NCBI GenBank assembly: GCA_965216465.1
Contig: CBDCFW010000006.1
Span: forward strand, 32,001-96,000
Length of the DNA: 64,000 bases
From: Bacteroidia bacterium
GTDB taxonomy: Bacteria > Bacteroidota > Bacteroidia > NS11-12g > UBA9320
Reading direction: 5' to 3'
The notes beneath the pieces were generated by a model. The model had not been told where the DNA came from. It ran no database searches and was given only the letters and a program-made list of their open reading frames with translations. Made by a program: the position numbers and the translations under genes. Below, one piece after another: positions 24,401 to 40,223 of the stretch. Position 1 is the first letter of the stretch; each line of letters begins with the position of its first letter.

Positions 24401-25885
24401 CTACTTTCTTAGGACAAGATTCTTTGCTTTCCCGTACAAACGATTGAGCTCATCCGAAACATTCAATTTAAGAACAATGAAGGTGTATGCAACAAGCACC
24501 GCTCCAGGCCAAACTGTTAAATTAAGCCAAACATTTTCGAATCGAGGTGCGAATTGAATTGCTGCAAAGATGACTATGCCTAAAATTAGAATTTTGAGCG
24601 TATCAACTGAAAAAGGTTCTAATTTAAATCGAATCTTTAGGTACAAATACTTCAATAAGTTGAATAAGAATATTGAGATTAAGGTAGAAACGGCTGCACC
24701 TTCTATACCATATATTGGGATTAGGTAGACGTTTAGAACAACATTTACAAATGAAAGAAAGAGAAGAAACACGAAATACATCACATACTTCTCAGACATT
24801 GACAAGATTTGACTGTTCAAGCCTGAGACCATATCTACCAATTTTGAACCCGCCAAAATCAGTATTACATATTTCCCTGCAGCAAACTGATCTCCTTTGG
24901 GCATAATTTCAAATATACCATCTAATGCAGACCACATAATAAGAAAGACTCCAAGCCCAAGTACAAAAAGATTAATTGATGATTTCTTGTACATCGTATT
25001 AATGCTATCCAATTCGTTTTTAGCCCAATGACCAGCAATTAGTGGTGAACTTATAGATGAAATAAGAGTTAGTGGAATGATAATAGTGTTCGAAACAAAC
25101 ATTGCTACACTGTAAATACCATTCTCAAATGTATTCTGAATAGACGTCACCATTACGGTGTCAATTCGTGTAGCTAAATGGCTCCCTAATCCAGCCAACA
25201 CCCCAAAAAGAGCATATCTCATTATTCCTAAGAACTCACCTTTTGGAATATTTTTGACCATTGAAAAGTCAACTCCTATATTTCCTATTTTTCGGAGGTA
25301 AACAATAAATACTCCCAACATAAGAAGGTGATGAGCAACAAGGCCATACAATAAAGCTTCAAACGAGATATATTGAAAAAAGTAAAGCAAACACAAAATT
25401 GGAAGTGTTACTTTAATCAAATTATTCAATACGGATGGAACTGCAATTCTTTTTAGATTAGAGCAGAAACTGTTGGCTAATGATGAAAATGACATCACTA
25501 TAGTGAGCATAACCAGCAGCTTTATGGCCAAAGGGCTTACACCAGAGTGCGTTGTGTAGTAGTCAATTAGACCCTCATTAAATAAGAAGTATACCAATAA
25601 CAGTAGTATTCCACTAAAGAAAGGTGGAAGCATTATGAATGTAAAAAATGCCGAATTCTTCCCTTCTTCAACATACTTAGAAAAGTACTTGTAAGAAACT
25701 GCAGTAAAGCCAAATACCATAAAAGGTACTAGCATAGCAGCTGTTTGAAGTACAAACTGAATTTCCCCTAATTCCTCAATTTCAAGCGTTGAAGGATAGA
25801 TTATGATTGTATTCAATACTCCAAGTGCCGTGGCCAGGTAGCTTACCAGACTTGACTTTGCACCTTGTCGTATAATTACTCCCAT
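24401..25885 (-). CDS. wzx: Wzx-type oligosaccharide flippase (MOP superfamily)
   Basis: About 14 TM; MGVIIRQ start, ID..M...GIYS and LIPIYGIEGAAVST. Confidence 0.85.
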   Translation of the reverse strand: MGVIIRQGAKSSLVSYLATALGVLNTIIIYPSTLEIEELGEIQFVLQTAAMLVPFMVFGFTAVSYKYFSKYVEEGKNSAFFTFIMLPPFFSGILLLLVYFLFNEGLIDYYTTHSGVSPLAIKLLVMLTIVMSFSSLANSFCSNLKRIAVPSVLNNLIKVTLPILCLLYFFQYISFEALLYGLVAHHLLMLGVFIVYLRKIGNIGVDFSMVKNIPKGEFLGIMRYALFGVLAGLGSHLATRIDTVMVTSIQNTFENGIYSVAMFVSNTIIIPLTLISSISSPLIAGHWAKNELDSINTMYKKSSINLFVLGLGVFLIMWSALDGIFEIMPKGDQFAAGKYVILILAGSKLVDMVSGLNSQILSMSEKYVMYFVFLLFLSFVNVVLNVYLIPIYGIEGAAVSTLISIFLFNLLKYLYLKIRFKLEPFSVDTLKILILGIVIFAAIQFAPRFENVWLNLTVWPGAVLVAYTFIVLKLNVSDELNRLYGKAKNLVLRK

Positions 25886-25886
25886 T

Positions 25887-26621
25887 TTAGTAGTCTAGGT
25901 CCAACAGAGCACCTCCAATACCTCCATTGTACTGAATATCTGAGCCATTTAGAAAGCGGTTATTGGATGAAACCAGAGTGCATATGAAATCTGCTAATGA
26001 TTTTGGACTTCCCAAGGTTTGAGAGGGGTGTATTTCAGCCAATTCATCTAGCTTATCTTGATTATAATCAAAGCCTTCTTTTAACATTTCAGTTTCTATA
26101 GCAGCTGGGCTCACTGAGTTTACTGTAATTCGCCCTTTGAATTCTACCGCAAGTGATTTTGTTAGCCCTACAAGTGCCGCTTTCGAGGTTGCATAGGCAA
26201 AAAAACCAGGTTTTGTGAGGTTTGCATGGATGCTGGCAATATTTAAAATCTGTCCCTTTTGCTCCGTCAAACTTGCGACAAAGGCTTTACTAAGCATAAA
26301 GGCAGAAGTTAAATTGACATTCATGGTGGTGTTCCACATTTCAACACTGAATTCTTCTATCTTCCCAAGTATTTGAGTCGCTGCATTATTAATCAAAACT
26401 TCAGGGCTGTATTCAGCGAGTTCTACCAATACTTTAGCCTGATAATCCGTATCTGAAATTAAGCGATTTAGATCTAGAGGTTGATATGCATTGCAGAAAT
26501 TATGTGTCGGCTCATCTGCTTTATCTGAAGCTATTACATAATATCCTTTTGCAGTGAACGCCTCGCACAGGGCACTTCCAATGCCACCATTTGCTCCCGA
26601 TATAAATATGCTCTTTATCAT
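25887..26621 (-). CDS. Short-chain dehydrogenase/reductase
   Basis: GANGGIG, NNAA, YATSK and VNSVSP. Confidence 0.9.
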   Translation of the reverse strand: MIKSIFISGANGGIGSALCEAFTAKGYYVIASDKADEPTHNFCNAYQPLDLNRLISDTDYQAKVLVELAEYSPEVLINNAATQILGKIEEFSVEMWNTTMNVNLTSAFMLSKAFVASLTEQKGQILNIASIHANLTKPGFFAYATSKAALVGLTKSLAVEFKGRITVNSVSPAAIETEMLKEGFDYNQDKLDELAEIHPSQTLGSPKSLADFICTLVSSNNRFLNGSDIQYNGGIGGALLDLDY

Positions 26622-27541
26622 TTAATTCCAAGATATTCAAACAACGTAGCTATCGCTTTGTAACTTGTTTTATCTACAGCTTCTTTTGTGTTTGAACCGT
26701 TATGACTTCCAAACATACAATTTTCAAACTCATTTAGCGGAGAAGTTGTCGACAGTGGTTCTACTTCAAACACATCTAACCCCGCACCTGCAATACCATT
26801 TCTTTTTAAACATTGTACGAGCGCATCCTCGTCAATTAATGGGCCACGGGATACATTAACGATGTAACATGTTTCTTTCAATTTTCTAAGAATGTCGTCA
26901 TTGATCAGGTGGTGCGTTGATGGATTTAATGCACAAGCCAAAAAGAGATAGTCTAAGTCTTCAACTCCTTCTGGAAACTGCTTAACCGGTACACCGTAGT
27001 CGGATTCTGCAAAAGGGTCGTAGGCACAAACATCCATATCAAATGCTTTTAATTTTCTTGCAATTCCTTTTCCAATATCGCCAAATCCTACAACACCAAC
27101 TTTCTTTCCAACCGTTGAATTACCAACAGGTTTAATCCAATTTCCTTTTCGAACTTCACGATCTATGATGTGCAGTTTTCGAGTTAGGTTTAGCATCAGA
27201 CCAATCGCAACATCCGACACTTCATTACCGAACATTCCAGGGGTATTCGTAATAGGGATATTCAATCGCTTGCAAGCGTCAAAATCTACATTATCGACAC
27301 CCACTCCCCATTTTACCGCTGCCTTAAGATTTCCTTTAACCCCAGCTTCAAATACATTTGAATTGGCCGGATCATCTCCGATAATCCAACCATCCATTGT
27401 TGGTACCAATTCGATTAATTCTTCTTCCGTTAAAACTTGAACGACGTTTGGTGCTATTAATTCAACACCTTTTTCTTCAAACAAATGACGATAATCATCA
27501 ATTTGTTTTAACATCGGAGGACAAGTAACTAGTATTCTCAT
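26618..27541 (-). CDS. D-isomer-specific 2-hydroxyacid dehydrogenase (SerA-like)
   Basis: GVGVDNVD, NTPG, GFGDIG, NVSRG, LDVFEVEP and SHNGS. Confidence 0.9.
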   Translation of the reverse strand: MRILVTCPPMLKQIDDYRHLFEEKGVELIAPNVVQVLTEEELIELVPTMDGWIIGDDPANSNVFEAGVKGNLKAAVKWGVGVDNVDFDACKRLNIPITNTPGMFGNEVSDVAIGLMLNLTRKLHIIDREVRKGNWIKPVGNSTVGKKVGVVGFGDIGKGIARKLKAFDMDVCAYDPFAESDYGVPVKQFPEGVEDLDYLFLACALNPSTHHLINDDILRKLKETCYIVNVSRGPLIDEDALVQCLKRNGIAGAGLDVFEVEPLSTTSPLNEFENCMFGSHNGSNTKEAVDKTSYKAIATLFEYLGIK

Positions 27542-28209
27542 TTTTTGTTGTTCAAGTAAATAGCTTCTGCAATCAAAAATTCTTGTTCTGTATCAATATC
27601 TTGAGCTTCAATCTGCTCAGTTTCAAACATCAACGGACGATCACCTATTCTATTATGCTTGTTCCTTAAGATTTCTTCGGTAAATAGATAAATGCATGAA
27701 TTTTCCTCATAAACAGGAGGAAGATCTTGAGTTGGCAGCAATATATTCGGGTTGTGATTCAGCGGTTGCGTTAGCTCATTCCATAATCGGGTTTGGAGTC
27801 TGGTGACACTAAATAATGAATCATAAATTGGATATTTATCTAAGAACTGTCCAATGGCTTTGTCAATACTCTCAACTGTTAGCAATGGGTTGGTGCTGTG
27901 CGTTTGAAGATAGAAATTAGATTCAACTTGAGAAATCGTATTCAACAACACATCGTTCATTGGGGTATCTCCAGGGCGCAGGTGCTCTGGCCTTAGTAAG
28001 ACCTTAACATCTGGATATTCTTCATTCAGTTTATCCATGATGGTTTGGCTATCGGTGTCGACCACAACTTGATCTATTTTTGAGCTTTTCAGCAGCGTTT
28101 GCAAGATGTGTTCAAATAATAACTTATCTCCAAACTGTCGGTAGTTTTTGCCCGGCACACGCTCGCTTGAGTGCTTCATTGGCAATATTGCAACTATATT
28201 ATTTTTCAT
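27538..28209 (-). CDS. NeuA/KdsB-family (CMP-ulosonate) cytidylyltransferase
   Basis: PMKHSSERVPGKN (variant of PARxxSxRxPxKN), VDTDS, QTHSTNP, EENS and DIDT. Confidence 0.85.
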   Translation of the reverse strand: MKNNIVAILPMKHSSERVPGKNYRQFGDKLLFEHILQTLLKSSKIDQVVVDTDSQTIMDKLNEEYPDVKVLLRPEHLRPGDTPMNDVLLNTISQVESNFYLQTHSTNPLLTVESIDKAIGQFLDKYPIYDSLFSVTRLQTRLWNELTQPLNHNPNILLPTQDLPPVYEENSCIYLFTEEILRNKHNRIGDRPLMFETEQIEAQDIDTEQEFLIAEAIYLNNKK

Positions 28210-28849
28210 TGATTTCTGTCAGTATGGCTCTGCACGGAGCCGCTTCTAATTCATTTAGTTTTAAAGGAAGGCAAATTAAATTATACCAACCCTCCGTTAC
28301 TTCTGTTAAGTTAATCGTTTCGAGTAAGACCGTGTCATTTTTAAGCAATTCACGATGTGTATCGTTGTGCTCATAAAATCCTTGTATTGATAAATAATCA
28401 ACACCCACCAAGTCAATATTACGCTTAACCAATGCCCTTGCTCCATCTAGGTTAAGTGCAACGAATCTATCCTCAAATGTATGTCCGTCTTTTGTCCAAA
28501 GCTTAGAGTTCTTGGTTTTGAATAGAACCTTTTCTACCCCCTCTGGAAGCTCATCTATAATTCGAGATGAAATTACATCAGCATCTCCACATTCTTTAAC
28601 AAAGCACTTGCCCAATAACTTTGAAAGCGGAATTGATTCAATAGTTTTACCTTCCTTTAAAAAGTGAAGAGGAGCATCAATATGAGTTCCGCAATGCACA
28701 TCCATTTGAATTGATGAAACATTTGCTTCTACCTCGTCATTAATTTCCATTTCTTTTCGAGAACTAAACCCTAAGCTATTAGGCCACTTCACCAGGTTTG
28801 CTGAAAGGTTTACTGATATGTCGATTGGGTTCTTAATCACGGTAGTCAA
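28199..28849 (-). CDS. Cyclase-family (kynurenine formamidase-like) metal hydrolase
   Basis: HCGTHIDAPLH, GVDYLS, H..LL...LLE and LPLKL...EAAPCRA. Confidence 0.88.
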   Translation of the reverse strand: MTTVIKNPIDISVNLSANLVKWPNSLGFSSRKEMEINDEVEANVSSIQMDVHCGTHIDAPLHFLKEGKTIESIPLSKLLGKCFVKECGDADVISSRIIDELPEGVEKVLFKTKNSKLWTKDGHTFEDRFVALNLDGARALVKRNIDLVGVDYLSIQGFYEHNDTHRELLKNDTVLLETINLTEVTEGWYNLICLPLKLNELEAAPCRAILTEINEK

Positions 28850-29777
28850 TTGATTTTTGATTTTCAGAATTTACATTGGTTCTTTCTGTGCTAGGCGGGT
28901 AATAGTACTTTTTTCTCAATTTTTCATCCAGTTTAACATTGGTCTCTCTGTAGCCTGCATAGGTGCCCATAAACTGATTGTGTCGAAACATAAATATTTC
29001 CCGAAAGTACTTAAAAAACTTACCTTCCTTAGCCGCTTGTTGCAAGTCATGCACAACATTAATAACCATCAATTGAGTGAGGTCCCATAAACCAAATTTT
29101 GACTCTGGATTTATTTTAGTTAAGGCAATAGCTTCTCTTCGATATCTATTTCTAATGTTTGCAGCTTTTTCTTCGTGCACGTGAATTATTGTGGCCTTGC
29201 CTTCATATGCAAGTTTGTAACCTTTGGTCTGAATTTTTTTCGCCCAATCAAGGTCTTCCAATCCTGTAAGTTCTTCGTCAAATTGCTGTTCTAACCATAA
29301 CGATTTACGAACCGCACAATTGGCATTGTTACAGAACGGAATTTGTTGGTCGTAGTTTGATTCATCAGGGAACCATTGTTTAAAGATTTGATGTTCAGAA
29401 AATTTATTGCGATGGTCTCCACGCTGTTTACCATAAACAAGCGCAACCTTTTCATCATTAATAAAAGGTGCAGTCATGAGGCTTAACCAATCTTCAAACA
29501 AAGGATAAACGTGGGCACTAGCAAAAAGCAATATATCACCTGTGGCAGCCTTACATCCCACATTTAGTGCATATCCAAAAGAAAATTCTTCTGGCTTAAT
29601 CTTTATAATATTGGTATCAAACTTCGAAGCGATTGCCACAGTTGAGTCTGTAGAACCGGAATCTACCACAATCACTTCATAGTCATCGTGATCTTGATGC
29701 TCTATTCCTGTTAGTAGTTTACCGATGTGTTCTTCCTCGTTAAAACACCGAATGATGATTGAAACTTTCAAGGACAC
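28833..29777 (-). CDS. GT2 glycosyltransferase (rhamnosyltransferase-like)
   Basis: SIIIRCFNEE, VVDSGSTD, FSFGYALN, NNANC and ED motif. Confidence 0.9.
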   Translation of the reverse strand: MSLKVSIIIRCFNEEEHIGKLLTGIEHQDHDDYEVIVVDSGSTDSTVAIASKFDTNIIKIKPEEFSFGYALNVGCKAATGDILLFASAHVYPLFEDWLSLMTAPFINDEKVALVYGKQRGDHRNKFSEHQIFKQWFPDESNYDQQIPFCNNANCAVRKSLWLEQQFDEELTGLEDLDWAKKIQTKGYKLAYEGKATIIHVHEEKAANIRNRYRREAIALTKINPESKFGLWDLTQLMVINVVHDLQQAAKEGKFFKYFREIFMFRHNQFMGTYAGYRETNVKLDEKLRKKYYYPPSTERTNVNSENQKSIDYRD

Positions 29778-29788
29778 AAATTTAAGAA

Positions 29789-30997
29789 CTATTTCCTTCT
29801 AACAGATGAACTTAACTTTCTAAATATAGGGTGATAATAAATCCCTTTTATACGTTGGCTCATGCTATCTGGTTTCATCGGAAAACTTCCACTTAATAGG
29901 AGTTTCGCAATTCTTTCAGAAGGCAGGTCTTTTCTTGTTGAAGGCAAGCAGTTTTTAGCTATATATTGCTGATAATCTTGATTTTGCAACTCTCTTCCAA
30001 GCACATTTACAACAGCGACATGAAGTTCGTCTTTGTTCCTAACAAGGGTAATCACCTTTTCGTCAATTTCTAGGTTTTGATACTGCTTTTCTCCATGAGG
30101 ATTGTAGTAAATAACAGGAATATTGAAGAACAAAGCCTCATGAATCAATGAGCTAAATCGAGTGATAAGCAGTTTTGCTCCTGAAAGTTGTTCGTGTACA
30201 CTTGATGCAGAGCTGTTAATCACATTAGAAAATTTAGACAAATTGCCTTTGTCTCTAGGGTGTTGAGAAATCTGATATTCCAGATTCTGATCTTTTAAGA
30301 CATTTGTAATATCGCTTAACCATGCTTCACGTTGACTCTCAAATATGCCATAGGTAAAATTGCAATTAATTAAAACCTTATCGCCCTTACTTTGCCTTGA
30401 ATAAATGAGATGTTCATATCTCGGATTACCAGTAAGCATGGTAAGTTTTCGGTCTAGCTTTTGCAGGTAAAACGAGCCTTGTAGCATTACACTATCAGCA
30501 AAAGTCATTCGTCTGTTTTCACTAAAATCAATCATAGACTCCTGAATGCACACACTAGGAATACTGATTGACCGAGCTTGCATAATGACCCATTTAGCCA
30601 ATTTTGACCAATCGTTCAAGCAAACCAAAACATCAGGCTTAAAAGCTCTGATTTTTGATTTTGAAAAGACTTCATACGCAATCCCATCCTCATCTAACTG
30701 TTTGGCACTATTTTCCTGGTTTACAGGAGGCACAAATACTTTGAAAGAAGCTTGGTCTAGATGTTTTATAATGGGCAATGCACTTCGCACAAGAGTATCG
30801 CTTTGCAAGTAAAAAGCAACTTTGTTCTGCCTTGCAACATTCGATTGTCTTGAATCAATCTCCCATTTATATTGAGCATATGAATTTCTTATCTCCTTAG
30901 CGATTTCACCAGCGGCAGAGTCGAGCCAAATGAGTTTATCGTATTCGTGAAATAATAACGAAGCAACAGAAATATCTTGAAAGATTAGTCCTTTCAC
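29789..30997 (-). CDS. Putative GT-B fold transferase (capsule/ulosonate-transferase-like)
   Basis: TGNPRY, HPRD and SSLIHEA...IPVI resemble the HP and S(S/T) motifs of GT-B CMP/CDP-donor transferases; GTGA overlap inside the operon. Confidence 0.5.
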   Translation of the reverse strand: MKGLIFQDISVASLLFHEYDKLIWLDSAAGEIAKEIRNSYAQYKWEIDSRQSNVARQNKVAFYLQSDTLVRSALPIIKHLDQASFKVFVPPVNQENSAKQLDEDGIAYEVFSKSKIRAFKPDVLVCLNDWSKLAKWVIMQARSISIPSVCIQESMIDFSENRRMTFADSVMLQGSFYLQKLDRKLTMLTGNPRYEHLIYSRQSKGDKVLINCNFTYGIFESQREAWLSDITNVLKDQNLEYQISQHPRDKGNLSKFSNVINSSASSVHEQLSGAKLLITRFSSLIHEALFFNIPVIYYNPHGEKQYQNLEIDEKVITLVRNKDELHVAVVNVLGRELQNQDYQQYIAKNCLPSTRKDLPSERIAKLLLSGSFPMKPDSMSQRIKGIYYHPIFRKLSSSVRRK

Positions 30998-31998
30998 TCT
31001 TTAAATATAGTATTAAAGATTTTCTTCCAGACTTCGTGTTGGTTATATTCTTCTTTTATTCTGCGTTGAACCTTTTGAATGTAAGGAAGTTGCTTATCTA
31101 CATTATTCATATAGTAGATACTTTTTTCGACATACTCTTCAGGATTCATTTCTAGAACAAGGTCTGACTCATCGTAAAAATCAAGCACTCCTTCATTATC
31201 TACAACACCAAATCGACCCAGTGAGAAGACGGTCCAAAACCGATCCATAATTCCTTTTTCAACCTTCCAAGAAGTAGCATGAATTATCGGACACAGTCTT
31301 GATTGTTCTAAGATCTCAATATGCTTTTCGATCGAAACAGCTCCCAACTTGGTTCCTCTCCCTGCCAAAACAGTATTCTCTGATGAGTCAAGAACAGGTT
31401 GGAGGTAACTGTTCCATTCCTTAATATTTCCACGTGTTTCTGTGCCCCATTTGCTTCCAACAAAACCGGCATCAAATTTGAACCCGTTGATGATGGGACT
31501 TGCTTTCATTATATCCTGGTAACTCAACGTCATAGTCCCCCATGGAATCCAAAAAATGCGTTCCTTATGTTTATTAACTATTGACGCCTTTGTTGGGAAG
31601 GTATCTACATCTGATTGAGCACCGAAAGCATAGTACCGGTATCCACTATTTTCTAGGTAGTCAAGTTTCTGGTATTGTGGCCAGTGCCAGTTTTTAAAAA
31701 ACTCCAGTGGCTCATCAGTCCAATCGCGCTCGGATGCTTTGCTTCCATCAAAAGAAGTTAGCTTTTGAATAATAATACTGTCCTTATGGGGTTTGTATTT
31801 TTCAATCAACTCAATGCTATCTGGAGCGTTCCAGCAGATATACACAGCTGGTTTGCTAAAATCTATTTTGTTCGCATTTCGATGAAATGCTTCGTATCCA
31901 AGCTCTTGGAAAGTATTTTTCAGGTAATTCCAAGGCCAAAAGTTGGTATGTTTTTTCTTATAAAACGGAGGTATATATCCGACTAGGTTAATTTGCAT
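30994..31998 (-). CDS. Glycosyltransferase (Glyco_trans_1_2 / CgeB-like)
   Basis: DAGFVGS, IMDRFW and C-terminal EHT-like EEYNQ. Start placed at ATG 31998, overlapping the upstream stop. Confidence 0.65.
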   Translation of the reverse strand: MQINLVGYIPPFYKKKHTNFWPWNYLKNTFQELGYEAFHRNANKIDFSKPAVYICWNAPDSIELIEKYKPHKDSIIIQKLTSFDGSKASERDWTDEPLEFFKNWHWPQYQKLDYLENSGYRYYAFGAQSDVDTFPTKASIVNKHKERIFWIPWGTMTLSYQDIMKASPIINGFKFDAGFVGSKWGTETRGNIKEWNSYLQPVLDSSENTVLAGRGTKLGAVSIEKHIEILEQSRLCPIIHATSWKVEKGIMDRFWTVFSLGRFGVVDNEGVLDFYDESDLVLEMNPEEYVEKSIYYMNNVDKQLPYIQKVQRRIKEEYNQHEVWKKIFNTIFKE

Positions 31999-33646
31999 AT
32001 ATCTTAGTAGAGACAATTGAACCGTCAATTAGCACAATTCTTAGGACATAATATCCATTTTTAAGTTCTGGTAGAGTTGCCAAATACATGTAATGACCAC
32101 TTCGTTCTATTGAGTTTATTTCGATTGTTTGACCTAATGTATTTATTAAGTATGCATCAACAGGTTGCTTAAAGTATCTAATTACTATACTAGAGCCATT
32201 AATAGGGTTAGGATAGGCTTCTAGATTAGATCCAGGTGCTAGGTCATCAATCCCCAAAGTTATTATCTCGTCACAATACAAAGAGTCTGGGTCGTACAAG
32301 CCTCTTCCAACAACAAAGTTGTCAAGACAACCTGTGAAGTGCTGGTCAATAGTTCCGCGATTATTTCTTGCTCCAACAACAAATGGATATTCAAATTTTC
32401 CCAAATTATTTGGAACTTCATTTCGAATATCAATCTTCGTTTGTTCAACCCCATCAAGATAGGCTTTATAGGTTGACCCACTTTTTTCGAAAGCTAAACA
32501 ATGCCATTGATTATCAAAGGCATCTTTTATATCTATTACATAGCTTCTGGTATCTCCATCCTTATCTCGTAAATAAAATAGAACTCTACCAAAATGATAA
32601 ACGGAAGCATATTTGTGAAAGTCTATTGCAAGGCCTTGATCAGACCCTCCAGAATTAAAGTTACTAAACACACTAGCCAGTTTAGCGTCAACTGAATCTT
32701 GTCTAAAGTTAAACCCTATATAAAAGGAGTCAAGGCTAGAAGCTAATTCGTCTAATGTTGTCAGCTCTGTATATTCACTTCCATTCAAGCAGATCGAATG
32801 ATTATCAGAACCGTCATGACCAACCCCAAACTCTGCTCCATGATTTGTCCCATCATTAAGCCCAACTTGATCTTTGATATCCCCTCCAAAAGGGTATTTG
32901 CAAAATACACGTGGTGTCTCAGGATTCACAATTTCATCGCAATACAAAGAGTCTGGTTGATAAGCACCACGTCCAATTATGAAATTATCGATGCTTCCTG
33001 TAAAGTTATTATCAATCGATCCGCGATTATTTCTAGCTCCTATTACGAAAGGATAATCAAAACTTCCAAAGTTATCGGGACCTTCATCTCTAATCTCAAT
33101 CTTCGATTGTTCAACGCCATCTAGAAAGGCTTTATAGTTATTCCCTAATTTCTGAAAAGCTAAACAGTGCCAGTTTCCATCAAATGCTTCATCTATTTCA
33201 ATTGCATAACTTCGAGTCACTCCATCTTTGTCTCGTATGTAGAACAGAACTCTTCCAAAATGATAAACTGAAGCGTATCTATGAAAATCGATTACTAAGC
33301 CTTGTCCTGATCCAGCGGTATTGAAGTTTGAAAACAAACTTGACATTTCAGCATCAAACGAATTCTGTTTAAAGTTGAATCCTATAAAAAATGAATCTAG
33401 GCTAGAAGCAAGATCATCCAATTTCGTAAATTCTGTATAGGTACTGCCGTTTAGAGAGATTGCATGATCAGAAGACCCATCATGTCCTATTGTATAAGCT
33501 GCACCGTGGTTGCTTCCATCATTGTTTCCAACTTGATCTTCCAAATTTGCTGCAAAAGGGTATTTGCAAAAAATCTGTGCCGAAGTGTTAATAGATAATG
33601 CTAAAAAAAATATAAGTAATATTCTCATGGGGTAAAGTGTTTTCAT
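31988..33646 (-). CDS. T9SS cargo with two tandem LamG/ConA-like domains and type A CTD
   Basis: Signal peptide, two ~222 aa repeats (WHCLAF...LDG...IGA...FTG.ID) and AYPNP...NTLGQ...GYYVLRI CTD. Confidence 0.85.
   Translation of the reverse strand: MKTLYPMRILLIFFLALSINTSAQIFCKYPFAANLEDQVGNNDGSNHGAAYTIGHDGSSDHAISLNGSTYTEFTKLDDLASSLDSFFIGFNFKQNSFDAEMSSLFSNFNTAGSGQGLVIDFHRYASVYHFGRVLFYIRDKDGVTRSYAIEIDEAFDGNWHCLAFQKLGNNYKAFLDGVEQSKIEIRDEGPDNFGSFDYPFVIGARNNRGSIDNNFTGSIDNFIIGRGAYQPDSLYCDEIVNPETPRVFCKYPFGGDIKDQVGLNDGTNHGAEFGVGHDGSDNHSICLNGSEYTELTTLDELASSLDSFYIGFNFRQDSVDAKLASVFSNFNSGGSDQGLAIDFHKYASVYHFGRVLFYLRDKDGDTRSYVIDIKDAFDNQWHCLAFEKSGSTYKAYLDGVEQTKIDIRNEVPNNLGKFEYPFVVGARNNRGTIDQHFTGCLDNFVVGRGLYDPDSLYCDEIITLGIDDLAPGSNLEAYPNPINGSSIVIRYFKQPVDAYLINTLGQTIEINSIERSGHYMYLATLPELKNGYYVLRIVLIDGSIVSTKIYAN
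32261..33574 (-). repeat. Intragenic tandem duplication, 666 nt period
   Basis: Copies start at 33574 (IFCKYPF) and 32908 (VFCKYPF) and share long identical blocks such as YASVYHFGRVLFY, GARNNRG and PDSLYCDEI. Confidence 0.9.
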
Positions 33647-33650
33647 GCGT

Positions 33651-33658
33651 CAAATATA
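33651..33658 (-). promoter_or_regulatory. -7 box TATATTTG heading the LamG-to-wzx operon
   Basis: Exact TAnnTTTG match 4 nt upstream of ATG 33646. Confidence 0.55.
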
Positions 33659-33677
33659 CAAAACGAATTATAGAAAA

Positions 33678-34547
33678 TTAAGAGTCAGTGCTCAACTTTT
33701 TTAATACATTCAAAAGATCTTCTGAACTATTTTTCAAAGCAATAAAGTTTCCCCATTCGTCTGGTTTAATGTCAAATGGATATGCTTGAAGTCTTGAAAA
33801 ACTATGATTCTGACCATATTTAACAATAGGCTCCCAAATAGATGCAAAAACAGTATAACCATTTGCTATAAATAAGTCAACCATGTCTTCTTTCCCATAA
33901 GGCAAATCTTTTGTTTTACGGTCCTCAAATTCTACCAAAATAACTTCGGGAGAGCACGTATCGAAGTCAATTCCTTTTAAGACTTGATAATCTGCTCCTT
34001 CTACATCTATTTTTAAAAACTGAACAGAGTCTATCTTTTTTTCTTCAATAAAGTCTTTAAGTGCTACTGTTTTTACAATATGGCTTTTCTGATGATTATC
34101 ACTAAACTTAACAGTAGATGCTATACCTTTAGATTCTTCCGAAACAAAGAATTCCAGTTCGACACCTGATTTATCTGAAACTGCTCGATTGTCTAAATGA
34201 AATTTCGAGAAGCGTTTCTGCACTTCTTTCAAGTGTTCACTCTTATCACCATCAATATCTGGTTCAAAAGCGTAGCATGTCCAATTCTTATAGAGAAATG
34301 GCATTGAACTCTCTCCAAACATTGCACCAACATCCAACATTGTACCATTATTCTTTCCTATATAGGTGAAGATTACTTCATTTTCGTTAAAAGACTGCTT
34401 TAATTTTGACTTAAACCTAGAACTATTAACGAACCACCGTGGACGAAGGCCCCAGAATTTATACGTTGTTCTTTTAATAAACTCTGGATAGTCAAACCCA
34501 GTTACCTTAATGATCCAATTTCTCTGTTCCTTGGTAAGAATTCCCAT
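33678..34547 (-). CDS. FkbM-family methyltransferase
   Basis: LDVGAMFG, AFEP and LKIDVEGAD..VLKG. Confidence 0.88.
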   Translation of the reverse strand: MGILTKEQRNWIIKVTGFDYPEFIKRTTYKFWGLRPRWFVNSSRFKSKLKQSFNENEVIFTYIGKNNGTMLDVGAMFGESSMPFLYKNWTCYAFEPDIDGDKSEHLKEVQKRFSKFHLDNRAVSDKSGVELEFFVSEESKGIASTVKFSDNHQKSHIVKTVALKDFIEEKKIDSVQFLKIDVEGADYQVLKGIDFDTCSPEVILVEFEDRKTKDLPYGKEDMVDLFIANGYTVFASIWEPIVKYGQNHSFSRLQAYPFDIKPDEWGNFIALKNSSEDLLNVLKKLSTDS

Positions 34548-34660
34548 TGTATTTAAAAGGAAGCAAAAATAAGAGATTACTTTACTTTCTGATTATCGCA
34601 AATAAATTCACATTATCTACAACTTACTTATTTAATCAAATGAAGTACTTTTGTTTCTTT

Positions 34661-36082
34661 ATGAAGACGCTTAGACCCCTAATTTTAAAGACAATATTGC
34701 TTTCTAGCTTGTTCACGCTTCTTCTCCTCAACTCGTCAACAGTTAGTGCACAAATACCTGATTCTGGACTAATTGGACGTTACGATTTTGAAAAGAATTT
34801 TGGTGATTCGAGCGGCATTGGCAACCATGCAACAAATTCAGGAGCCAAATTTATAACAGATCGATGTTTTTATGATTCAATGGCACTTGTGTTTAACGGA
34901 ATCAATCAATACATAGACTTGGGAAAACAAGATTCGTTAAACGCATATTTAAATAACTTCACTACGGCTTTCTGGTTTAAGTCTCATCCTGGCAAAAACA
35001 ACTGGGAAAGCATCATAAAGACCATAAACAATGCCGGTACCGGAACGGTATACAGCATTGAGATAAACCGCAAACCTTCTGGATTTGAGTATGGAGTTTT
35101 TGTTGCACAGCTGCGTGATAAGAATGGAAAAACACTCTCAATGGCCTTTAAAGACTCAATAATAAACAATCTTGAATGGCATCATGTTGCGCTTGTTGTT
35201 GAAAATTCTTCTACAAACCAGTACAAACTTTATCTAGACGGAATTGAAAAACAGAAGCTATCTGGTCTTCCTGCGGGTGGCCCTTCACAGTACAACAGTT
35301 TTGACAACAATGTAGTCGCAGGAGCTAGTAATTCAAGAGGCACAATAACAAACCACTTTAGTGGAGCTCTGGATCAAATATTGCTATACAAAAGAGCTTT
35401 AGACAGTATCGAAATTGTGAACATCTACAATACAAGCTGCGACAGCATTGTGTGCACCGACACCACGTTTACAACCCATATTGATACCATTGTTTACAAT
35501 GATACTTTAATCCACACTGACACAATTCAGTATATTGACACCTTAATATTAAATGATACTATTCAGGTGCTTGATACCACTTTTATTAATATTTATGATA
35601 CAACATATATTGACATAATTGATACCATCTTTGTTGATGTATTTGACACAACCTTTGTGTCGATATTTGATACAACCATTGTAACTGTCTTTGATACGAC
35701 AGAAATAATAGTTCGTGACACTATTTGGGTTACTGATACAAACTACCACACTGTTCAAATATATGACACCGTACTAACCTCGAAATGTGATACAATAACG
35801 CTAAACTTTATTGACACCACATGCAACTCACAGTGGATAAAAATTTTACTTTATCCAAATCCCGTTAGGGATCACTTAAGTATCGAATTTGAGGAAGAGT
35901 ATTGCTTCAGCGACTATTTTGTTACAGTCTGGAATGTCCTAGGACAAAAGGTAGGAGAGTTTAATATTGATTCAAGAGTAACTAAATACCCAGTTGGCGG
36001 TCTTGCAAGAAGTACATACTTTATGCGATTATACAACTACAAAACTGGATCAGTCCGCGTTCTAAAATTTATTATTAAATAG
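34661..36082 (+). CDS. T9SS cargo: LamG domain, DT-repeat stalk and type A CTD
   Basis: ATG 34661 follows TACTTTTG (34646-34653); signal peptide, LamG (WHHVAL..LYLDG..FSGALD) and LYPNPV...NVLGQ...KFIIK. Confidence 0.85.
   Translation: MKTLRPLILKTILLSSLFTLLLLNSSTVSAQIPDSGLIGRYDFEKNFGDSSGIGNHATNSGAKFITDRCFYDSMALVFNGINQYIDLGKQDSLNAYLNNFTTAFWFKSHPGKNNWESIIKTINNAGTGTVYSIEINRKPSGFEYGVFVAQLRDKNGKTLSMAFKDSIINNLEWHHVALVVENSSTNQYKLYLDGIEKQKLSGLPAGGPSQYNSFDNNVVAGASNSRGTITNHFSGALDQILLYKRALDSIEIVNIYNTSCDSIVCTDTTFTTHIDTIVYNDTLIHTDTIQYIDTLILNDTIQVLDTTFINIYDTTYIDIIDTIFVDVFDTTFVSIFDTTIVTVFDTTEIIVRDTIWVTDTNYHTVQIYDTVLTSKCDTITLNFIDTTCNSQWIKILLYPNPVRDHLSIEFEEEYCFSDYFVTVWNVLGQKVGEFNIDSRVTKYPVGGLARSTYFMRLYNYKTGSVRVLKFIIK
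35441..35824 (+). repeat. Degenerate D-T-x repeat array (mostly 6- and 8-residue units)
   Basis: 18 D-S/T dipeptides in 128 codons, for example DTIVYN DTLIHT DTIQYI ... DTTFINIY DTTYIDII. Confidence 0.9.
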
Positions 36083-36184
36083 TTTTCTGATTGAACTTCT
36101 TATTCGAGCAGTTACTCATGTGGTGTTTGAAATCGACCAATAGTTTGAAATCTTATAAACTGTCTTTAAATTTGAAGTTGACTA

Positions 36185-38614
36185 ATGAATAAGACTGCAC
36201 TCCTTTTTTTTGCCTTAATTTTAAGCTTTGATGTATTTTCACAAATTGACACAACATTTTGGTTTGCAGCCCCAGAAGTATCTAGGCACACTTCAGATTT
36301 TGATAGACCCATATTACTCCGTCTAACGACCCTGGATCAATCAAGCACAGTCAAAGTTTCGCAACCAGCGAACAGTAATTTTAGTGAGTTAAGTTTTATG
36401 GTTGGCCAAAATTCAACACAAACTATTGACTTATCAAGCTACATTGACCAAATCGAAAGTAAGCCAGCCAATTCAACTCTTAACACTGGGATATTAATCA
36501 GATCTTCTGCTCCTATTACAGCCTATTATGAAGTGGCCAGTGCAACCTGTAATTGCAATCCGGAAATCTTTAGTCTTAAAGGAGGCAATGCCGCTGGTAA
36601 TTCGTTCTACATTCCGACTCAGGTTTACTTTGACAACTCACTTCGTTACACCCCACAAGCATATAGCTCCTTTGATATAGTTTCAACCGAAGATAACAAT
36701 GTAATTACAATAACTCCTAAAAAACAAATTGTTGGCCACAGTGCAAATCAGTCTTTTAATATAACCTTAATGAAAGGTGAGGTTTATTCTGCCGCGGCGA
36801 CATCTCATTTAGCGAGTCAACATTTGGCAGGGTCTCGTGTAACTTCATTATACCCCATATCAATTACTGTAAAAGACGATCTGCTTGAAGGTCTTGGTCA
36901 ATGTAGAGACATAGCAGGAGATCAAATTGTACCCATAGATAATATAGGGACAGAATACATTGCTGTGAAAGGATTTTTAGATGGAAACAGAGAACGTATA
37001 TCGGTAATTGCAACAGAAGACAATACCTCAGTTTATAGCAATTCGAATAGTAGCCCATTAGCGACCATTGATGCTGGCGAGGTGTATGAGGTTCTTCTGA
37101 GTCAATCTGCCACTTACATTAATACTTCTAAGCCTAGTTATGTGTGGCACACTTCTGGTTTTGGATGCGAGCTGGCAGGAGCATTACTTCCGCCCATTAA
37201 TTGTACAGGAACTTTCCAAAGTTCTTTTGTAAGAACAACACAAGATCAATTTGGTATTATCATTTTTGTAGAGAAGGCAGGTGTAGCCAATTTTTCATTA
37301 AACAACAGTTCATCATACATTCAACAATCCCATTTCTCAGCCATTCCTGGAACTTCAGATCAGTGGTATTCTGCACGTATTGAATTGTCTAATTCCGTTA
37401 TCTCAGCAGGAAGTTTAGTGAATATTAAAAATTCTACAAATCTTTTTCATCTCGGATTTATAAATGGAGTTGCAGGTTCAGGAACACGCTATGGTTACTT
37501 CTCAGACTATGCTAAAATTACTGGGAAAAATCACGCTTTATCATTCTGCGAGGATAATGAGTTAACCCTCACAACATCCAATGGTACAAATTACAATTGG
37601 AGTACAACTGAAACAACTTCGTCAATTAAGGTAAGTACGGAAGGCAAATATTGGGTCGATTATAAAATCAATGAATGTGCGGCTACAGATAGTTTTGATG
37701 TAGCCATGTATTATAGAAATGGACCAGATTTTGAAGACTCTGTGTTATGTAACAATGACTCCCTTATCCTTGACTTAAATCCAAACCAAGTTATTTTGAA
37801 TAGTGAAGGTGACACTTTGAAAACGAATTCGATTAAAAATCAAGGCACATACACTGTTCACACTGAAGGTTGTAAGAACTCAGATCAAATTAATTTAAAA
37901 TTCGAATCACCTCAAATTAGTTTAGGACCAGATACAACCTTCTGCGATTCAATAAATCTACAACTTCAGGTTAGCGATACGTTTTTAAGTTATGTATGGA
38001 ACTCTGGAAGCATAGGGAACGAAATTTTGGTTAAAAGTCCAGGCACCTATTGGATTATTGCACAAACCATTAGAGGCTGTGAATCTAATGATTCAATTAC
38101 TATTCGTCAATCTTCAACACCAAAGATTAACTTGGGTAATGACACATCAGTTTGCTTTAGCACTGGATTTTTGCTAGATGCTGGAACGAATAGCAAAATT
38201 CTATGGCAAGATGGGTCCACTAATCGTTATTTTTCTGCCCAATCAAAGGGCACGTTTCATGTTGTGGTAACAAATGACGATGGATGCATAGCATCAGATA
38301 CGATAATTATAGATGCTACTGGTGCAAATCAAACAATCCGCTTTCTTCCAAATTCATTCACTCCGGATGGTAATGGCATTAATGATTTCTTTCCATTTAG
38401 TCCTGAAAAACATCAACCAATTGATCAGTACTCATTAAAAATCTTTAGCTTCTGGGGCGAAAAACTATGGGAATCTATCGAAAGCTCTGTTCCTTGGAAC
38501 GGGATTTACCAGGGAAAAGAAGCTCAACAGGGGAATTACATGTACATTCTTTCGTGGAAAGACTGCAACAACAATTACCATTCAACAAGTGGAGTGGTGA
38601 TGTTATTAAGGTAG
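36185..38614 (+). CDS. IgGFc-binding-domain protein with Ig-like repeats and T9SS type B (gliding-motility-associated) CTD
   Basis: DTTFWFAAP start, GTEY...ATEDNT, repeated LGxDT/YxWxxG units and PNSFTPDGNGIND..W.G...G.Y.Y...G.VMLLR. Confidence 0.82.
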   Translation: MNKTALLFFALILSFDVFSQIDTTFWFAAPEVSRHTSDFDRPILLRLTTLDQSSTVKVSQPANSNFSELSFMVGQNSTQTIDLSSYIDQIESKPANSTLNTGILIRSSAPITAYYEVASATCNCNPEIFSLKGGNAAGNSFYIPTQVYFDNSLRYTPQAYSSFDIVSTEDNNVITITPKKQIVGHSANQSFNITLMKGEVYSAAATSHLASQHLAGSRVTSLYPISITVKDDLLEGLGQCRDIAGDQIVPIDNIGTEYIAVKGFLDGNRERISVIATEDNTSVYSNSNSSPLATIDAGEVYEVLLSQSATYINTSKPSYVWHTSGFGCELAGALLPPINCTGTFQSSFVRTTQDQFGIIIFVEKAGVANFSLNNSSSYIQQSHFSAIPGTSDQWYSARIELSNSVISAGSLVNIKNSTNLFHLGFINGVAGSGTRYGYFSDYAKITGKNHALSFCEDNELTLTTSNGTNYNWSTTETTSSIKVSTEGKYWVDYKINECAATDSFDVAMYYRNGPDFEDSVLCNNDSLILDLNPNQVILNSEGDTLKTNSIKNQGTYTVHTEGCKNSDQINLKFESPQISLGPDTTFCDSINLQLQVSDTFLSYVWNSGSIGNEILVKSPGTYWIIAQTIRGCESNDSITIRQSSTPKINLGNDTSVCFSTGFLLDAGTNSKILWQDGSTNRYFSAQSKGTFHVVVTNDDGCIASDTIIIDATGANQTIRFLPNSFTPDGNGINDFFPFSPEKHQPIDQYSLKIFSFWGEKLWESIESSVPWNGIYQGKEAQQGNYMYILSWKDCNNNYHSTSGVVMLLR

Positions 38615-38642: not shown

Positions 38643-39374
38643 TCAATACTTCTCAATTGCTTCTTCAAAACTTATTTCAGGAAACAAATTACTCAACCTT
38701 GACCCAGGAGAGCACAGTAATATTTCCATGCCTTTAGATTTGTACTTTCGGCTGATATATTGCCAACCTTTGTAATGGTTTTGAGTTTGGGGTTTGGAAT
38801 ATTCTGTCCCTTTTCCGAAATAATCAGGTCGAAAATGATTCGGGTCACTATCTCCTTCAGATTTGTAAACGATTCTGCGGTCAACGCTATCTTCATTTAC
38901 TTCTACAGAAACTCCTTTTATATTATGCTCTTCATAATTACAATCTGTTCCAAGAATAATAATTCTCTTATACCCTAAGCTTTTCAAAATTGGGACAGCC
39001 GTTGCTCCAACGTTGGCAATCAACCCCATGTTTTTTATGGTTTTTCCCCACTTATATCCGCGCTCCCAAATCTTTCTGTTAAAGTTTATGAAATGAACTT
39101 GATCTAAATTATTACCAAAGTAGGATTTAAACTTTTTATCGAAATAGAACGACTTAATCTGCCCCTGCTTAATCAAGTCATTTACAGCATCCTTTGTATT
39201 GCTCATAACAACAGGGTCTGCAATCATAAAGTGTGTTGGATAGAACCCCCAATCTTCATACGCGATATAAGCCCTATTGAAAGATATTGTATTTTTATCC
39301 CTCAGTTTTTCTATATCTATCTTATTTAAACTTGGCCCATTTCCAATAAGATAGACTGTTTCACCACCGTGCAT
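38643..39374 (-). CDS. DUF115/MAF_flag10-like (Cst-II-type fold) putative CMP-ulosonate transferase
   Basis: IGNGPSL, FNR, LGY..I..LGTD and NHF..DY. Confidence 0.7.
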   Translation of the reverse strand: MHGGETVYLIGNGPSLNKIDIEKLRDKNTISFNRAYIAYEDWGFYPTHFMIADPVVMSNTKDAVNDLIKQGQIKSFYFDKKFKSYFGNNLDQVHFINFNRKIWERGYKWGKTIKNMGLIANVGATAVPILKSLGYKRIIILGTDCNYEEHNIKGVSVEVNEDSVDRRIVYKSEGDSDPNHFRPDYFGKGTEYSKPQTQNHYKGWQYISRKYKSKGMEILLCSPGSRLSNLFPEISFEEAIEKY

Positions 39375-39518
39375 CTATTTTTTTTTGGCACGAAAGTACT
39401 TCAATCTTACTAAACACAAACCCTTTAAACGGAATATTCAAACCATCACGTAAGGTAAATTGAAAGTTTAATTTAATTTATTCTTACCATTGCAATATAT
39501 TTTTATCACAAACAGAAA

Positions 39519-40223
39519 ATGAGCAGACTGATTACCTCTATTTCAGATATATTTTATAAATTTTTCTCGTCCTACTTTCGAAACCGTTTTTCAATGGATA
39601 TTGAAATTCAACTTCGAATGAATTCATTAGCGTCAACAGCAAAATACATCGAAAGCAATATGGTTGACGTCCCAATGTTTCAATCTAAAAAGGAAGTTCT
39701 TGACCTATCTCTCTCAAAAGTATCGTTAGATGGAATGTATTGCGAATTTGGAGTGTATAAAGGAAGTACAGCAAATCATATTGCCAGAGTGACAAAAAAG
39801 CCTATTCATGCTTTTGACTCATTTGAAGGGCTCCCTGAAGACTGGTCTATCCGTCACAAAAAGGGGCTGTTTGCCTTAAAAAATATGCCAACATTTGAAG
39901 ATAACGTTGTAGTTCACAAAGGTTGGTTCGATGATACTTTACCTGGCTTTGCTCAAGAAGAAAAAGGAGACTTGGCGTTTTTACATATAGATTCAGACCT
40001 TTATTCTTCAGCAAAAACAATCTTTCAATATCTTGGTGACAGAATTATCCCAGGAACTATTATCCTTTTTGACGAGTACTTCAATTATCCATTCTGGGAG
40101 CACCATGAATATAAAGCATTTGCTGAATTTGTAGCAGAAAACAACATTAAGTACGAATATCTTGGTTTTAATACTTTGACCTATGGATCAAATGCAGCTG
40201 TCAAGATTATCTCTAGAGATTAG
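39519..40223 (+). CDS. TylF/MycF/NovP-like class I SAM O-methyltransferase
   Basis: EFGVYKG, FDSFEGLP, GWFDDTL, HIDSDLYSS and FDEY. Confidence 0.88.
   Translation: MSRLITSISDIFYKFFSSYFRNRFSMDIEIQLRMNSLASTAKYIESNMVDVPMFQSKKEVLDLSLSKVSLDGMYCEFGVYKGSTANHIARVTKKPIHAFDSFEGLPEDWSIRHKKGLFALKNMPTFEDNVVVHKGWFDDTLPGFAQEEKGDLAFLHIDSDLYSSAKTIFQYLGDRIIPGTIILFDEYFNYPFWEHHEYKAFAEFVAENNIKYEYLGFNTLTYGSNAAVKIISRD

Follow-up and report, generated by a model that had tools for sequence, protein, structure and literature searches.

How does a surface-glycan locus come to hold an enzyme of the kind that activates acidic 2-keto sugars, when none of the synthases that condense such sugars is encoded beside it? To our knowledge, all cytidine monophosphate (CMP)-activated sugars, namely the sialic, legionaminic (Leg) and pseudaminic (Pse) acids, Kdn (ketodeoxynononic acid) and Kdo (ketodeoxyoctonic acid), are 3-deoxy-2-ulosonic acids that come from condensing synthases; they play key parts in immune mimicry, in the glycosylation of flagellin and in lipopolysaccharide. 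The question is raised by a window of 64,000 nt (the whole stretch of DNA that was analysed), which covers positions 32001-96000 of contig C6 (CBDCFW010000006.1) in the genome of a Bacteroidia bacterium (GCA_965216465.1, here G000). In this window four overlapping genes encode a cyclase-family hydrolase, a cytidylyltransferase (CT), a D-isomer-specific 2-hydroxyacid dehydrogenase (2HADH) and a short-chain dehydrogenase/reductase (SDR). We conclude that they belong to a widespread and uncharacterised cassette, which probably makes and CMP-activates an acidic 2-keto sugar and installs it on a surface glycan. Its conserved unit is GT2a-CT-2HADH-SDR-Maf, where GT2a is a family-2 glycosyltransferase and Maf a Maf-like transferase, rather than the four genes to which an earlier, sequence-only reading had drawn attention. 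How the sugar would be made is a harder matter; the reading that we favour, without being confident in it, is an oxidative route that dispenses with any synthase dependent on phosphoenolpyruvate (PEP) or pyruvate.

All four open reading frames (ORFs) lie on the minus strand exactly where they had been reported, with overlaps of 11, 4 and 4 nt, and their position between a GT2 gene (28833-29777) and wzx (24401-25885) was borne out by the Pfam families found in a scan of hand-picked long ORFs between 17.4 and 51 kb of the window. The genes of the cassette and its closest associates are as follows.

28833-29777, minus strand: GT2a, a family-2 glycosyltransferase with SAH replacing the DxD motif (PF00535, 3.5e-24); overlaps the cyclase ORF by 17 nt
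28199-28849, minus strand: cyclase-family (KynB-like) metal-dependent hydrolase, 216 aa, TTG start (Cyclase, PF04199, 3.7e-18)
27538-28209, minus strand: CT, the cytidylyltransferase, 223 aa (CTP_transf_3, PF02348, 2.8e-29)
26618-27541, minus strand: 2HADH, the D-isomer-specific 2-hydroxyacid dehydrogenase, 307 aa (PF02826, 2.1e-51; PF00389, 2.5e-15)
25887-26621, minus strand: classical SDR oxidoreductase, 244 aa (adh_short_C2, PF13561, 1.8e-37; adh_short, PF00106, 3.4e-36)
24401-25885, minus strand: Wzx-like flippase (Polysacc_synt, PF01943, 2.9e-10), one base past the SDR gene
38643-39374, minus strand: MptE-like/Maf-like protein (DUF115; PF01973, 35.3 bits), a putative CMP-ulosonate transferase, 9.8 kb upstream of the cassette

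Is this arrangement more than a local accident? Among 401 sampled genomes of the same phylum, 14 had a CT match at E <= 1e-30, and 13 of the surrounding stretches were fetched; four of these (L021, L022, L023 and L031) show the order GT2-(cyclase)-CT-2HADH-SDR, two of them with the cyclase gene, and all four have an MptE-like gene near the cassette, L023 also adjoining a flagellin gene. A scan of one genome per species gave 423 stretches encoding a CT relative, and the best 80 of the 423 (54-84% identity) were analysed. The CT orthologues in these best 80 come from the Bacteroidota, many Anaerolineae and other Chloroflexota, Alphaproteobacteria (Niveispirillum, Stappia, Mesorhizobium, Methyloligella and Sphingobium), Cyanobacteria (Trichodesmium and Microcoleus), Planctomycetota, Deltaproteobacteria, Zixibacteriota and an archaeon, a metagenome-assembled genome (MAG) of Methanolinea. 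Cultured carriers include Flexilinea flocculi TC1, Niveispirillum irakense DSM 11586, Stappia, Croceitalea and Catalinimonas. When the 1162 ORFs of 84 loci (the best 80 plus the four above) were clustered into families, CT was present in 76 loci, 2HADH in 69, SDR in 59, the MptE-like family in 45, the cassette GT2 in 41, a 540-aa KpsS-like family in 35, NeuB in 24 (plus 7 NeuB-AP_endonuc_2 fusions), Gfo/Idh/MocA in 16 and the cyclase in 12. Since the order of the genes is repeated in the 84 related loci examined, the arrangement lies far beyond chance.

A stricter count used tblastn on the 46 fully flanked loci, those with at least 4 kb upstream and at least 6 kb downstream of CT. Here 2HADH was found next to CT in 44 (one of the two misses, L037, being an artefact of the overlap filter), a Maf-like gene within 10 kb of CT in 38, SDR in 34, GT2a in 29, NeuB in 21, a KpsS-like gene in 21 and the cyclase, between GT2a and CT, in 6. 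The co-occurrence test suggested with the sequence-only reading was passed: the genes do co-occur across distant taxa, and they are also found fused, but the cyclase is an optional member. The usual layout in the Chloroflexota is [GFO][SDR]-CT1-NeuB-KpsS-like-[GT2a]-CT2-2HADH-SDR-Maf, in which the cassette has a canonical NeuB unit, complete with a CT of its own, as its neighbour. One candidate carrier, L020 (genome G067), is doubtful; its 65%-identical CT has no cassette around it and lies beside enoyl-CoA hydratase and RimM genes.

The cassette genes are also joined into single proteins. Among 1085 candidates there were 95 longer CT homologues at E <= 1e-30, of which about 59 are CT-SDR, 12 CT-2HADH (some of them eukaryotic), 12 GT2-CT and one, from Triparma laevis, CT-2HADH-SDR; the other partners are a sulfotransferase (3), an HMGL-like domain (2), a hexapeptide repeat (2) and, once each, a methyltransferase, FkbM and UDP-glucose dehydrogenase, with one protein showing no second domain. 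In the eight fusions that were re-scanned, the order of the domains is the order of the genes. The CT-2HADH and CT-2HADH-SDR fusions P0125, P0130, P0131 and P0213 are eukaryotic; their sources are EukProt entries, the stramenopile Triparma and the brown alga Discosporangium, so that algae too have acquired the cassette.

What can be said of the enzymes themselves? CT matches PF02348 with 102.9 bits against a cut-off of 22.6, yet it reaches no curated equivalog (74.3 bits against 205.7 for PseF, and 39.3 against 193 for the best KdsB model), and its best solved relative is the CMP-NeuAc synthetase of N. meningitidis at 5.8e-11. The motif that had been singled out as atypical, PMKHSSERVPGKN at residues 10-22, is indeed present; it is not peculiar to this gene, being kept as PM[R/K]HxSxRVPGKN across 71 aligned sequences, and so reads as the signature of a distinct CTP_transf_3 subfamily. 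The N-terminal phosphate-binding loop, with its basic residues and PGK(N), is present and aligns with ARQNSKGLPLKN of 1eyr. Identity is 27% to the PseF-like CT of the same genome and about 24% to CT1, the NeuB-linked CT of the Chloroflexota loci. The CT family is very large: all 8000 CT candidates scored in public data fell at E <= 1e-10, giving at least 8000 close homologues. Plasmid records gave six matches with generic or absent annotation, and in phage records there was no CT homologue at E 1e-10. A CT of the CTP_transf_3 fold requires a 2-keto acid as its substrate. That CT and 2HADH are nearly always adjacent, and in places fused, is accordingly in keeping with consecutive steps.

The 2HADH is SerA-like and lacks an ACT domain; it scores 193 bits against a cut-off of 454 in the phosphoglycerate dehydrogenase model, and its best solved relative is the phosphoglycerate dehydrogenase 1wwk (9e-52). 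Both Pfam domains are matched, and the columns RG, E and HN, which we take to be the catalytic Arg/Glu/His triad, are conserved over 71 sequences. The solved relatives of the SDR, at about 1e-26, include both FabG-type reductases and proteins related to aldohexose and glucose 1-dehydrogenases. In both dehydrogenases an Asp follows the second beta-strand (VIASD in the SDR, CAYDP in the 2HADH); this presumably marks a preference for NAD, and so fits oxidation. The known reactions of the 2HADH family interconvert 2-hydroxy and 2-keto acids, several members accepting 2-keto-D-gluconate or 2-keto-L-gulonate (PMC6303947). The 2HADH step proposed in the sequence-only reading agrees with this chemistry.

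Two candidate transferases accompany these enzymes. GT2a matches PF00535 with 86 bits against a cut-off of 23.3, and in the 29 fully flanked loci that have it, its orthologues (45-76% identity) stand directly upstream of CT. The DxD motif of GT-A enzymes binds the metal of the nucleotide diphosphate. At the place of this motif GT2a has SAHVYP, in 42 of 42 aligned sequences, and SAH faces the DSD of TarS (5tze) in the alignment; the LTGLEDL(D)W region is retained. A GT2a without ligands for a diphosphate-bound metal would fit a monophosphate donor such as a CMP-sugar. The Maf-like ORF of the window is a marginal match to PF01973 (35.3 bits against a cut-off of 34.6), its orthologues near CT reaching 45-62 bits, and in a search against solved structures it had no sequence match. 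At 243 aa it is shorter than the orthologues (266-290 aa), and in the genome search the MptE-like match spans 38643-39383, running 9 nt beyond the start of the ORF and crossing one TAG; the N-terminus of the window ORF may be truncated. In L023, L031, L042 and L048, Methyltransf_24 recurs as a fusion partner or direct neighbour of a Maf-like or cassette gene.

Between GT2a and CT there is, finally, a slot for a hydrolase. A cyclase-family protein fills it in the window and in 11 more loci, and the cyclase holds it in Bacteroidota, Cyanobacteria, the Methanolinea MAG, Deltaproteobacteria, Zixibacteriota and Chloroflexaceae. In L031 the hydrolase is a metallo-beta-lactamase (MBL) domain fused to GT2a, whose best named match, L-ascorbate-6-phosphate lactonase, is weak (61.7 bits against 306). 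In related sister cassettes it belongs to the 6-phosphogluconolactonase (6PGL) family, TIGR01198 giving 140 bits in L027, over its cut-off of 124.45, and 104 and 98 bits in the 6PGL-like proteins of G000 contig C1 and of L024. Circumstantially, three unrelated folds in one optional slot fit a lactonase step, and the cyclase would be the proposed lactonase of the window.

The decisive issue is whether a condensing synthase supplies the substrate of CT. As had been stated, none is encoded alongside: NeuB, DAHP_synth_1 (KdsA type) and HpcH_HpaI had no genome matches inside the window, NeuC not having been searched as a family. Elsewhere in G000 there are three NeuB matches (C1:249149, C1:246001 and C6:742846), two DAHP_synth_1 matches (C6:742846 and C1:146002) and one sub-threshold HpcH match (21.7 bits, C6:1014148); the 25.5-bit "NeuB" match is in fact the KdsA-type gene. 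A second large glycan locus, at C1:232000-262000 (L033 and L034), encodes a LegB-like dehydratase, a formyltransferase, NeuB (342 bits in the Pfam scan, 342.9 in the genome search), a NeuC-like epimerase, a PtmE-like gene/CBS-NTP transferase, another NeuB-like gene whose match is weak, two more CTs and two sulfotransferases. The same locus holds a run of PseF-like CT, 2HADH, extended SDR and 6PGL-like genes.

Genome G272 presents a different picture. This genome, 98% complete, has the full GT2a-cyclase-CT-2HADH-SDR-(methyltransferase-Maf) set beside a flagellin gene, and its family searches gave no NeuB, no HpcH and no DAHP_synth_1; its only CTP_transf_3 gene is the CT of the cassette. Five further genomes of its family, f32 (G148, G152, G228, G236 and G340), were searched, with no DAHP_synth_1 in any of the five and no NeuB in four. 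The six f32 genomes are 98-100% complete and two of the five further ones are single contigs; the absence of DAHP_synth_1 in five more genomes makes it a trait of the lineage, not an assembly gap. The six genomes accordingly have neither KdsA nor a class-I DAHP synthase, which suggests that this lineage of the phylum lacks Kdo. On the caution attached to the sequence-only reading, that a synthase elsewhere in the genome might supply the sugar, the two genomes differ: G000 has NeuB and KdsA outside the window, and G272 has neither.

Across the 21 carrier genomes in which the NeuB family was searched, 16 had a match and five had none: G272, the chromosome of Mesorhizobium sp. L-8-3 (G401), Methyloligella (G402), Croceitalea (G405) and a Sphingobium MAG (G410). 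DAHP_synth_1 genes are present in G401, G402 and G405. The weak NeuB matches in G067, G407 and G409 (<= 50 bits) are doubtful as real synthases, their counterpart in G000 being of the KdsA type; G067 was retained in the tally of 21 despite its doubtful status as a carrier.

From these elements a route can be proposed. The SDR, of NAD type, would oxidise C1 of a sugar to the lactone, and this would open spontaneously or with the aid of the cyclase-family hydrolase. The SerA-like 2HADH would then convert the resulting 2-hydroxy acid to a 2-keto acid, a sugar of the hex-2-ulosonate type. CT would join its anomeric hydroxyl with cytidine triphosphate (CTP), the release of pyrophosphate driving the unfavourable oxidation, and the sugar would be transferred by the DxD-less GT2a, by the Maf-like enzyme or by both. 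Neither a PEP- nor a pyruvate-dependent synthase would be needed in this scheme. We prefer the oxidative reading, tentatively, on the strength of four observations: the genome G272, the reactions known for the 2HADH family, the fused proteins and the slot for a hydrolase. If it is right, which we put at somewhat less than an even chance, the product could be the first of a new class, a CMP-activated 2-ulosonic acid that is not 3-deoxy and that arises by a purely oxidative route. That route might then span many bacterial phyla, methanogen-related archaea and, in the form of fused enzymes, algae, a breadth to which we attach the same reserve.

A number of observations weigh against such a route. 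We know of no CMP-activated 2-ulosonic acid other than the 3-deoxy kind. The legionaminic-acid-type NeuB cluster and the KdsA gene of G000 mean that independence from a synthase is not established for that genome, and the synthase-free case rests on one genome, G272. NeuB lies within 10 kb of CT in 21 of the 46 fully flanked loci, and the five Chloroflexota carriers without a nearby NeuB that were tested all have 2-5 NeuB matches elsewhere. The relatives of the SDR cannot separate aldose dehydrogenases from ketoreductases. In the sister cassettes, whose CTs are 42-58% identical, an HpcH pyruvate aldolase is carried together with 2HADH (L024, L026 and L027), so that 2HADH cannot there simply replace a synthase; HMGL-like-CT fusions likewise occur. 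Finally, the characterised modules of a CT with two oxidoreductases, ElaABC and EpaAB, are epimerases that tailor finished nonulosonates (PMC13656337, PMC12053666).

These last precedents furnish the strongest alternative, that the 2HADH and SDR take a ready-made ulosonic acid and, by oxidising and re-reducing it at a single hydroxyl, epimerise or otherwise modify that position. In G000 the substrate might be the Leg-type nonulosonate (NulO) of the contig C1 locus, or Kdo, and the dedicated CT might bind or re-activate the modified sugar for the Maf-like and GT2a transferases. PMC12053666 describes EpaA, a CTP_transf_3 domain fused to an aldo-keto reductase, and the SDR EpaB as converting Pse to 8-epi-Pse, in a host whose K locus has its own CT as well; according to PMC13656337, ElaB (a CT), ElaA (Gfo/Idh/MocA) and ElaC (an SDR) epimerise CMP-Leg at C8. 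The order PtmA-LegF-PtmF (SDR-CT-oxidoreductase) is given as standard in Leg clusters in PMC4481668, and Maf-like enzymes appear in PMC7387560 as nonulosonate-associated transferases that have been proposed for Kdo also. The NeuB (343 bits), NeuC-like and PtmE-like genes and additional CTs on contig C1, the proximity of NeuB in many loci and its presence in most carrier genomes all speak for tailoring. Set against this are the cassette of G272, which has no NeuB, KdsA-type or HpcH synthase and no second CT to go with it, and the remoteness of CT both from the PseF and KdsB equivalogs and from the PseF-like and NeuB-linked CTs of the carriers. CT is, moreover, 54-63% identical across phyla, more than would be expected if it served the differing ulosonates of its hosts. 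The characterised 2HADHs all act at the C2 of an acid, never at a remote sugar hydroxyl (PMC6303947). We regard tailoring as somewhat less likely than the oxidative route, by a small margin.

A narrower alternative concerns one gene: the cyclase might be the plain kynurenine formamidase of G000, serving the synthesis of NAD from tryptophan without any role in sugar metabolism. It is the top match in G000 to the arylformamidase model TIGR03035 (143 bits, the second paralogue having 29), its best solved relatives are 1r61 and kynurenine formamidases, and its motif HxGTHxDxPxH, present as VHCGTHIDAPLHF, is kept in 13 orthologues together with a distal H...E, residues that we take to be metal-binding. 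G000 has a true 3-hydroxyanthranilate 3,4-dioxygenase (3-HAO; 265 bits against a cut-off of 220) and an ORF resembling tryptophan 2,3-dioxygenase (TDO), nadC lies 4 kb from the cassette inside the window, and most loci have the cassette without a cyclase. The gene thus has in common with KynB its fold family, its metal-binding motifs and its best solved relative by sequence. It differs in a score below the curated cut-off (143 against 223.05), in its translational overlap with the glycan genes on both sides, and in a position between GT2a and CT that is kept in six phylum-level groups, even in hosts where the TDO search found none. Among the five carriers of a cyclase cassette other than G000, three gave no TDO and four no 3-HAO, two of the negatives being MAGs; the TDO-like ORF of G000 extends over no more than the model's N-terminal half (88 bits against 390.7), and in L031 an MBL hydrolase occupies the slot of the cyclase. 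We consider a plain formamidase unlikely.

Two side observations belong here. The TDO-like ORF (171 aa; C1:76978-77938, L119:6978-7938), which has arsenic-resistance genes beside it, precedes a 142-aa ORF with no assigned family; it represents a split gene or else a short form. The second cyclase-family gene of G000, at C3:246428-247177 (L116:6428-7177), lies beside a GT9 heptosyltransferase-like gene and an AMP-binding enzyme, likewise outside any tryptophan-degradation context.

The weakest alternative, that the 2HADH and SDR supply not a sugar backbone but a small keto or hydroxy acid (e.g., hydroxypyruvate or glycerate), which either would feed an unrecognised condensing enzyme as its donor or would decorate the glycan as an acyl or ether group, while CT activates an ulosonate from another source, can draw on the closeness of the 2HADH to phosphoglycerate dehydrogenase and to glyoxylate/hydroxypyruvate reductases and on sister cassettes that pair 2HADH with HpcH or HMGL-like pyruvate aldolases, for which its product could be the aldol donor or acceptor, but it is improbable in view of the near-universal adjacency and the fusion of CT and 2HADH, which argue for consecutive steps, the failure of HpcH to reach the family cut-off in all five carriers of the present (type I) cassette that were tested, and the want of an acyltransferase or ligase among the conserved cassette members.

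Around the cassette, the locus has further features of surface-glycan synthesis and export.

29789-34547, minus strand: upstream co-directional genes of the same locus, namely orf402 (no Pfam family), a GT1-like gene, a LamG protein of the type IX secretion system (T9SS) and an FkbM methyltransferase
39519-40223, plus strand: TylF/Methyltransf_24 O-methyltransferase (PF05711, 4.2e-14; PF13578, 3.1e-12), adjoining the Maf-like gene

The co-directional run comprises the FkbM methyltransferase, the LamG/T9SS protein, GT1-like, orf402, GT2, cyclase, CT, 2HADH, SDR and wzx, after which come the housekeeping genes adk and obg; homologues of the FkbM, GT1-like and orf402 genes are syntenic in L038, the closest locus. 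Farther upstream there are two T9SS-sorted proteins, the Maf-like gene, the TylF/Methyltransf_24 methyltransferase and another GT2. Between the glycosyltransferase genes and the Maf-like gene (31988-38614) lie in all three secreted proteins with T9SS sorting domains, two of them LamG-domain proteins and the third an IgGFc-binding-like/CHU_C protein, and these could be targets of glycosylation. Past the second GT2, on the plus strand, a YfhO-like membrane protein, a PIG-L-family deacetylase and an ATP-grasp enzyme end the locus (41380-45495), with possible glycan-modifying functions. A promoter and terminator scan of 23.5-35.5 kb found sites to be rarer than in shuffled sequence and was uninformative on the limits of the operon.

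Should the oxidative route prove correct, it would be a second way to a CMP-activatable keto-acid sugar, with a new nucleotide sugar and a new glycan residue. Thousands of genes whose present annotation is "acylneuraminate cytidylyltransferase" or "phosphoglycerate dehydrogenase" would find an explanation as well, and a lineage of GT2 enzymes would gain a CMP-dependent function. Were the cassette an epimerisation module instead, the principle of ElaABC and EpaAB would take in a new enzyme family and many phyla. Since carriers are in culture, the question is directly testable.

How, then, does the cassette compare with systems already described? A search of the full-text literature, supplements excluded, found no published description of it, only the precedents cited here. 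An E. coli K3 capsule is reportedly one that contains a 4-deoxy-2-hexulosonic acid, to judge from a title in a reference list. Among the closest systems are the sister cassettes of the same CT clade, which are also uncharacterised and bear generic names in RefSeq. They always share with it a related CT and a 2HADH, and in L026 a cyclase-family hydrolase adjoins the CT; theirs alone are a pyruvate aldolase and further enzymes. The type II sister cassette reads HpcH aldolase-CT-2HADH-HAD-extended SDR-6PGL-like, and type III reads HpcH-2HADH-GFO-SIS-SDR-AroB-like (TIGR04425)-DUF386-CT-cyclase. On a plasmid of Acuticoccus a sister cassette is annotated as aldolase, acylneuraminate cytidylyltransferase family, phosphoglycerate dehydrogenase, HAD and oxidoreductase. 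The larger cassette at L026:9404-10489 and its neighbours (also in L024, L025 and L028-L030) has a CT about 48% identical to that of the window, an AroB-related "sugar phosphate phospholyase" (TIGR04425, 424 bits, over the cut-off) and a polysialyltransferase-like gene.

With the ElaABC module of A. baumannii KL49 and V. vulnificus and the EpaAB module of A. baumannii prophages, the cassette shares a dedicated CT accompanied by two NAD(P)-dependent oxidoreductases from different families, of which one is an SDR, and CT-oxidoreductase fusions are known in modules of that type as in the present one. The partner that is not an SDR is, however, a 2HADH here and a Gfo/Idh/MocA protein or an aldo-keto reductase there; the CT of the window is of another subfamily than those of ElaABC, EpaAB and PtmA-LegF-PtmF; and the cassette is present in G272 without any NulO synthase. 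In the Chloroflexota a separate GFO-SDR-CT-NeuB unit stands beside it. With the Kdo (KdsA/KdsC/KdsB), NeuC/NeuB/NeuA, Pse and Leg pathways the cassette has in common a CT of the CTP_transf_3 family, a place among the flippase and glycosyltransferase genes of a surface-glycan locus, and the association with Maf-like genes. It is set apart from them by a CT that falls under the PseF and KdsB equivalog cut-offs, by the constant partnership of that CT with a 2HADH, and by being a conserved cassette in its own right without a condensing synthase.

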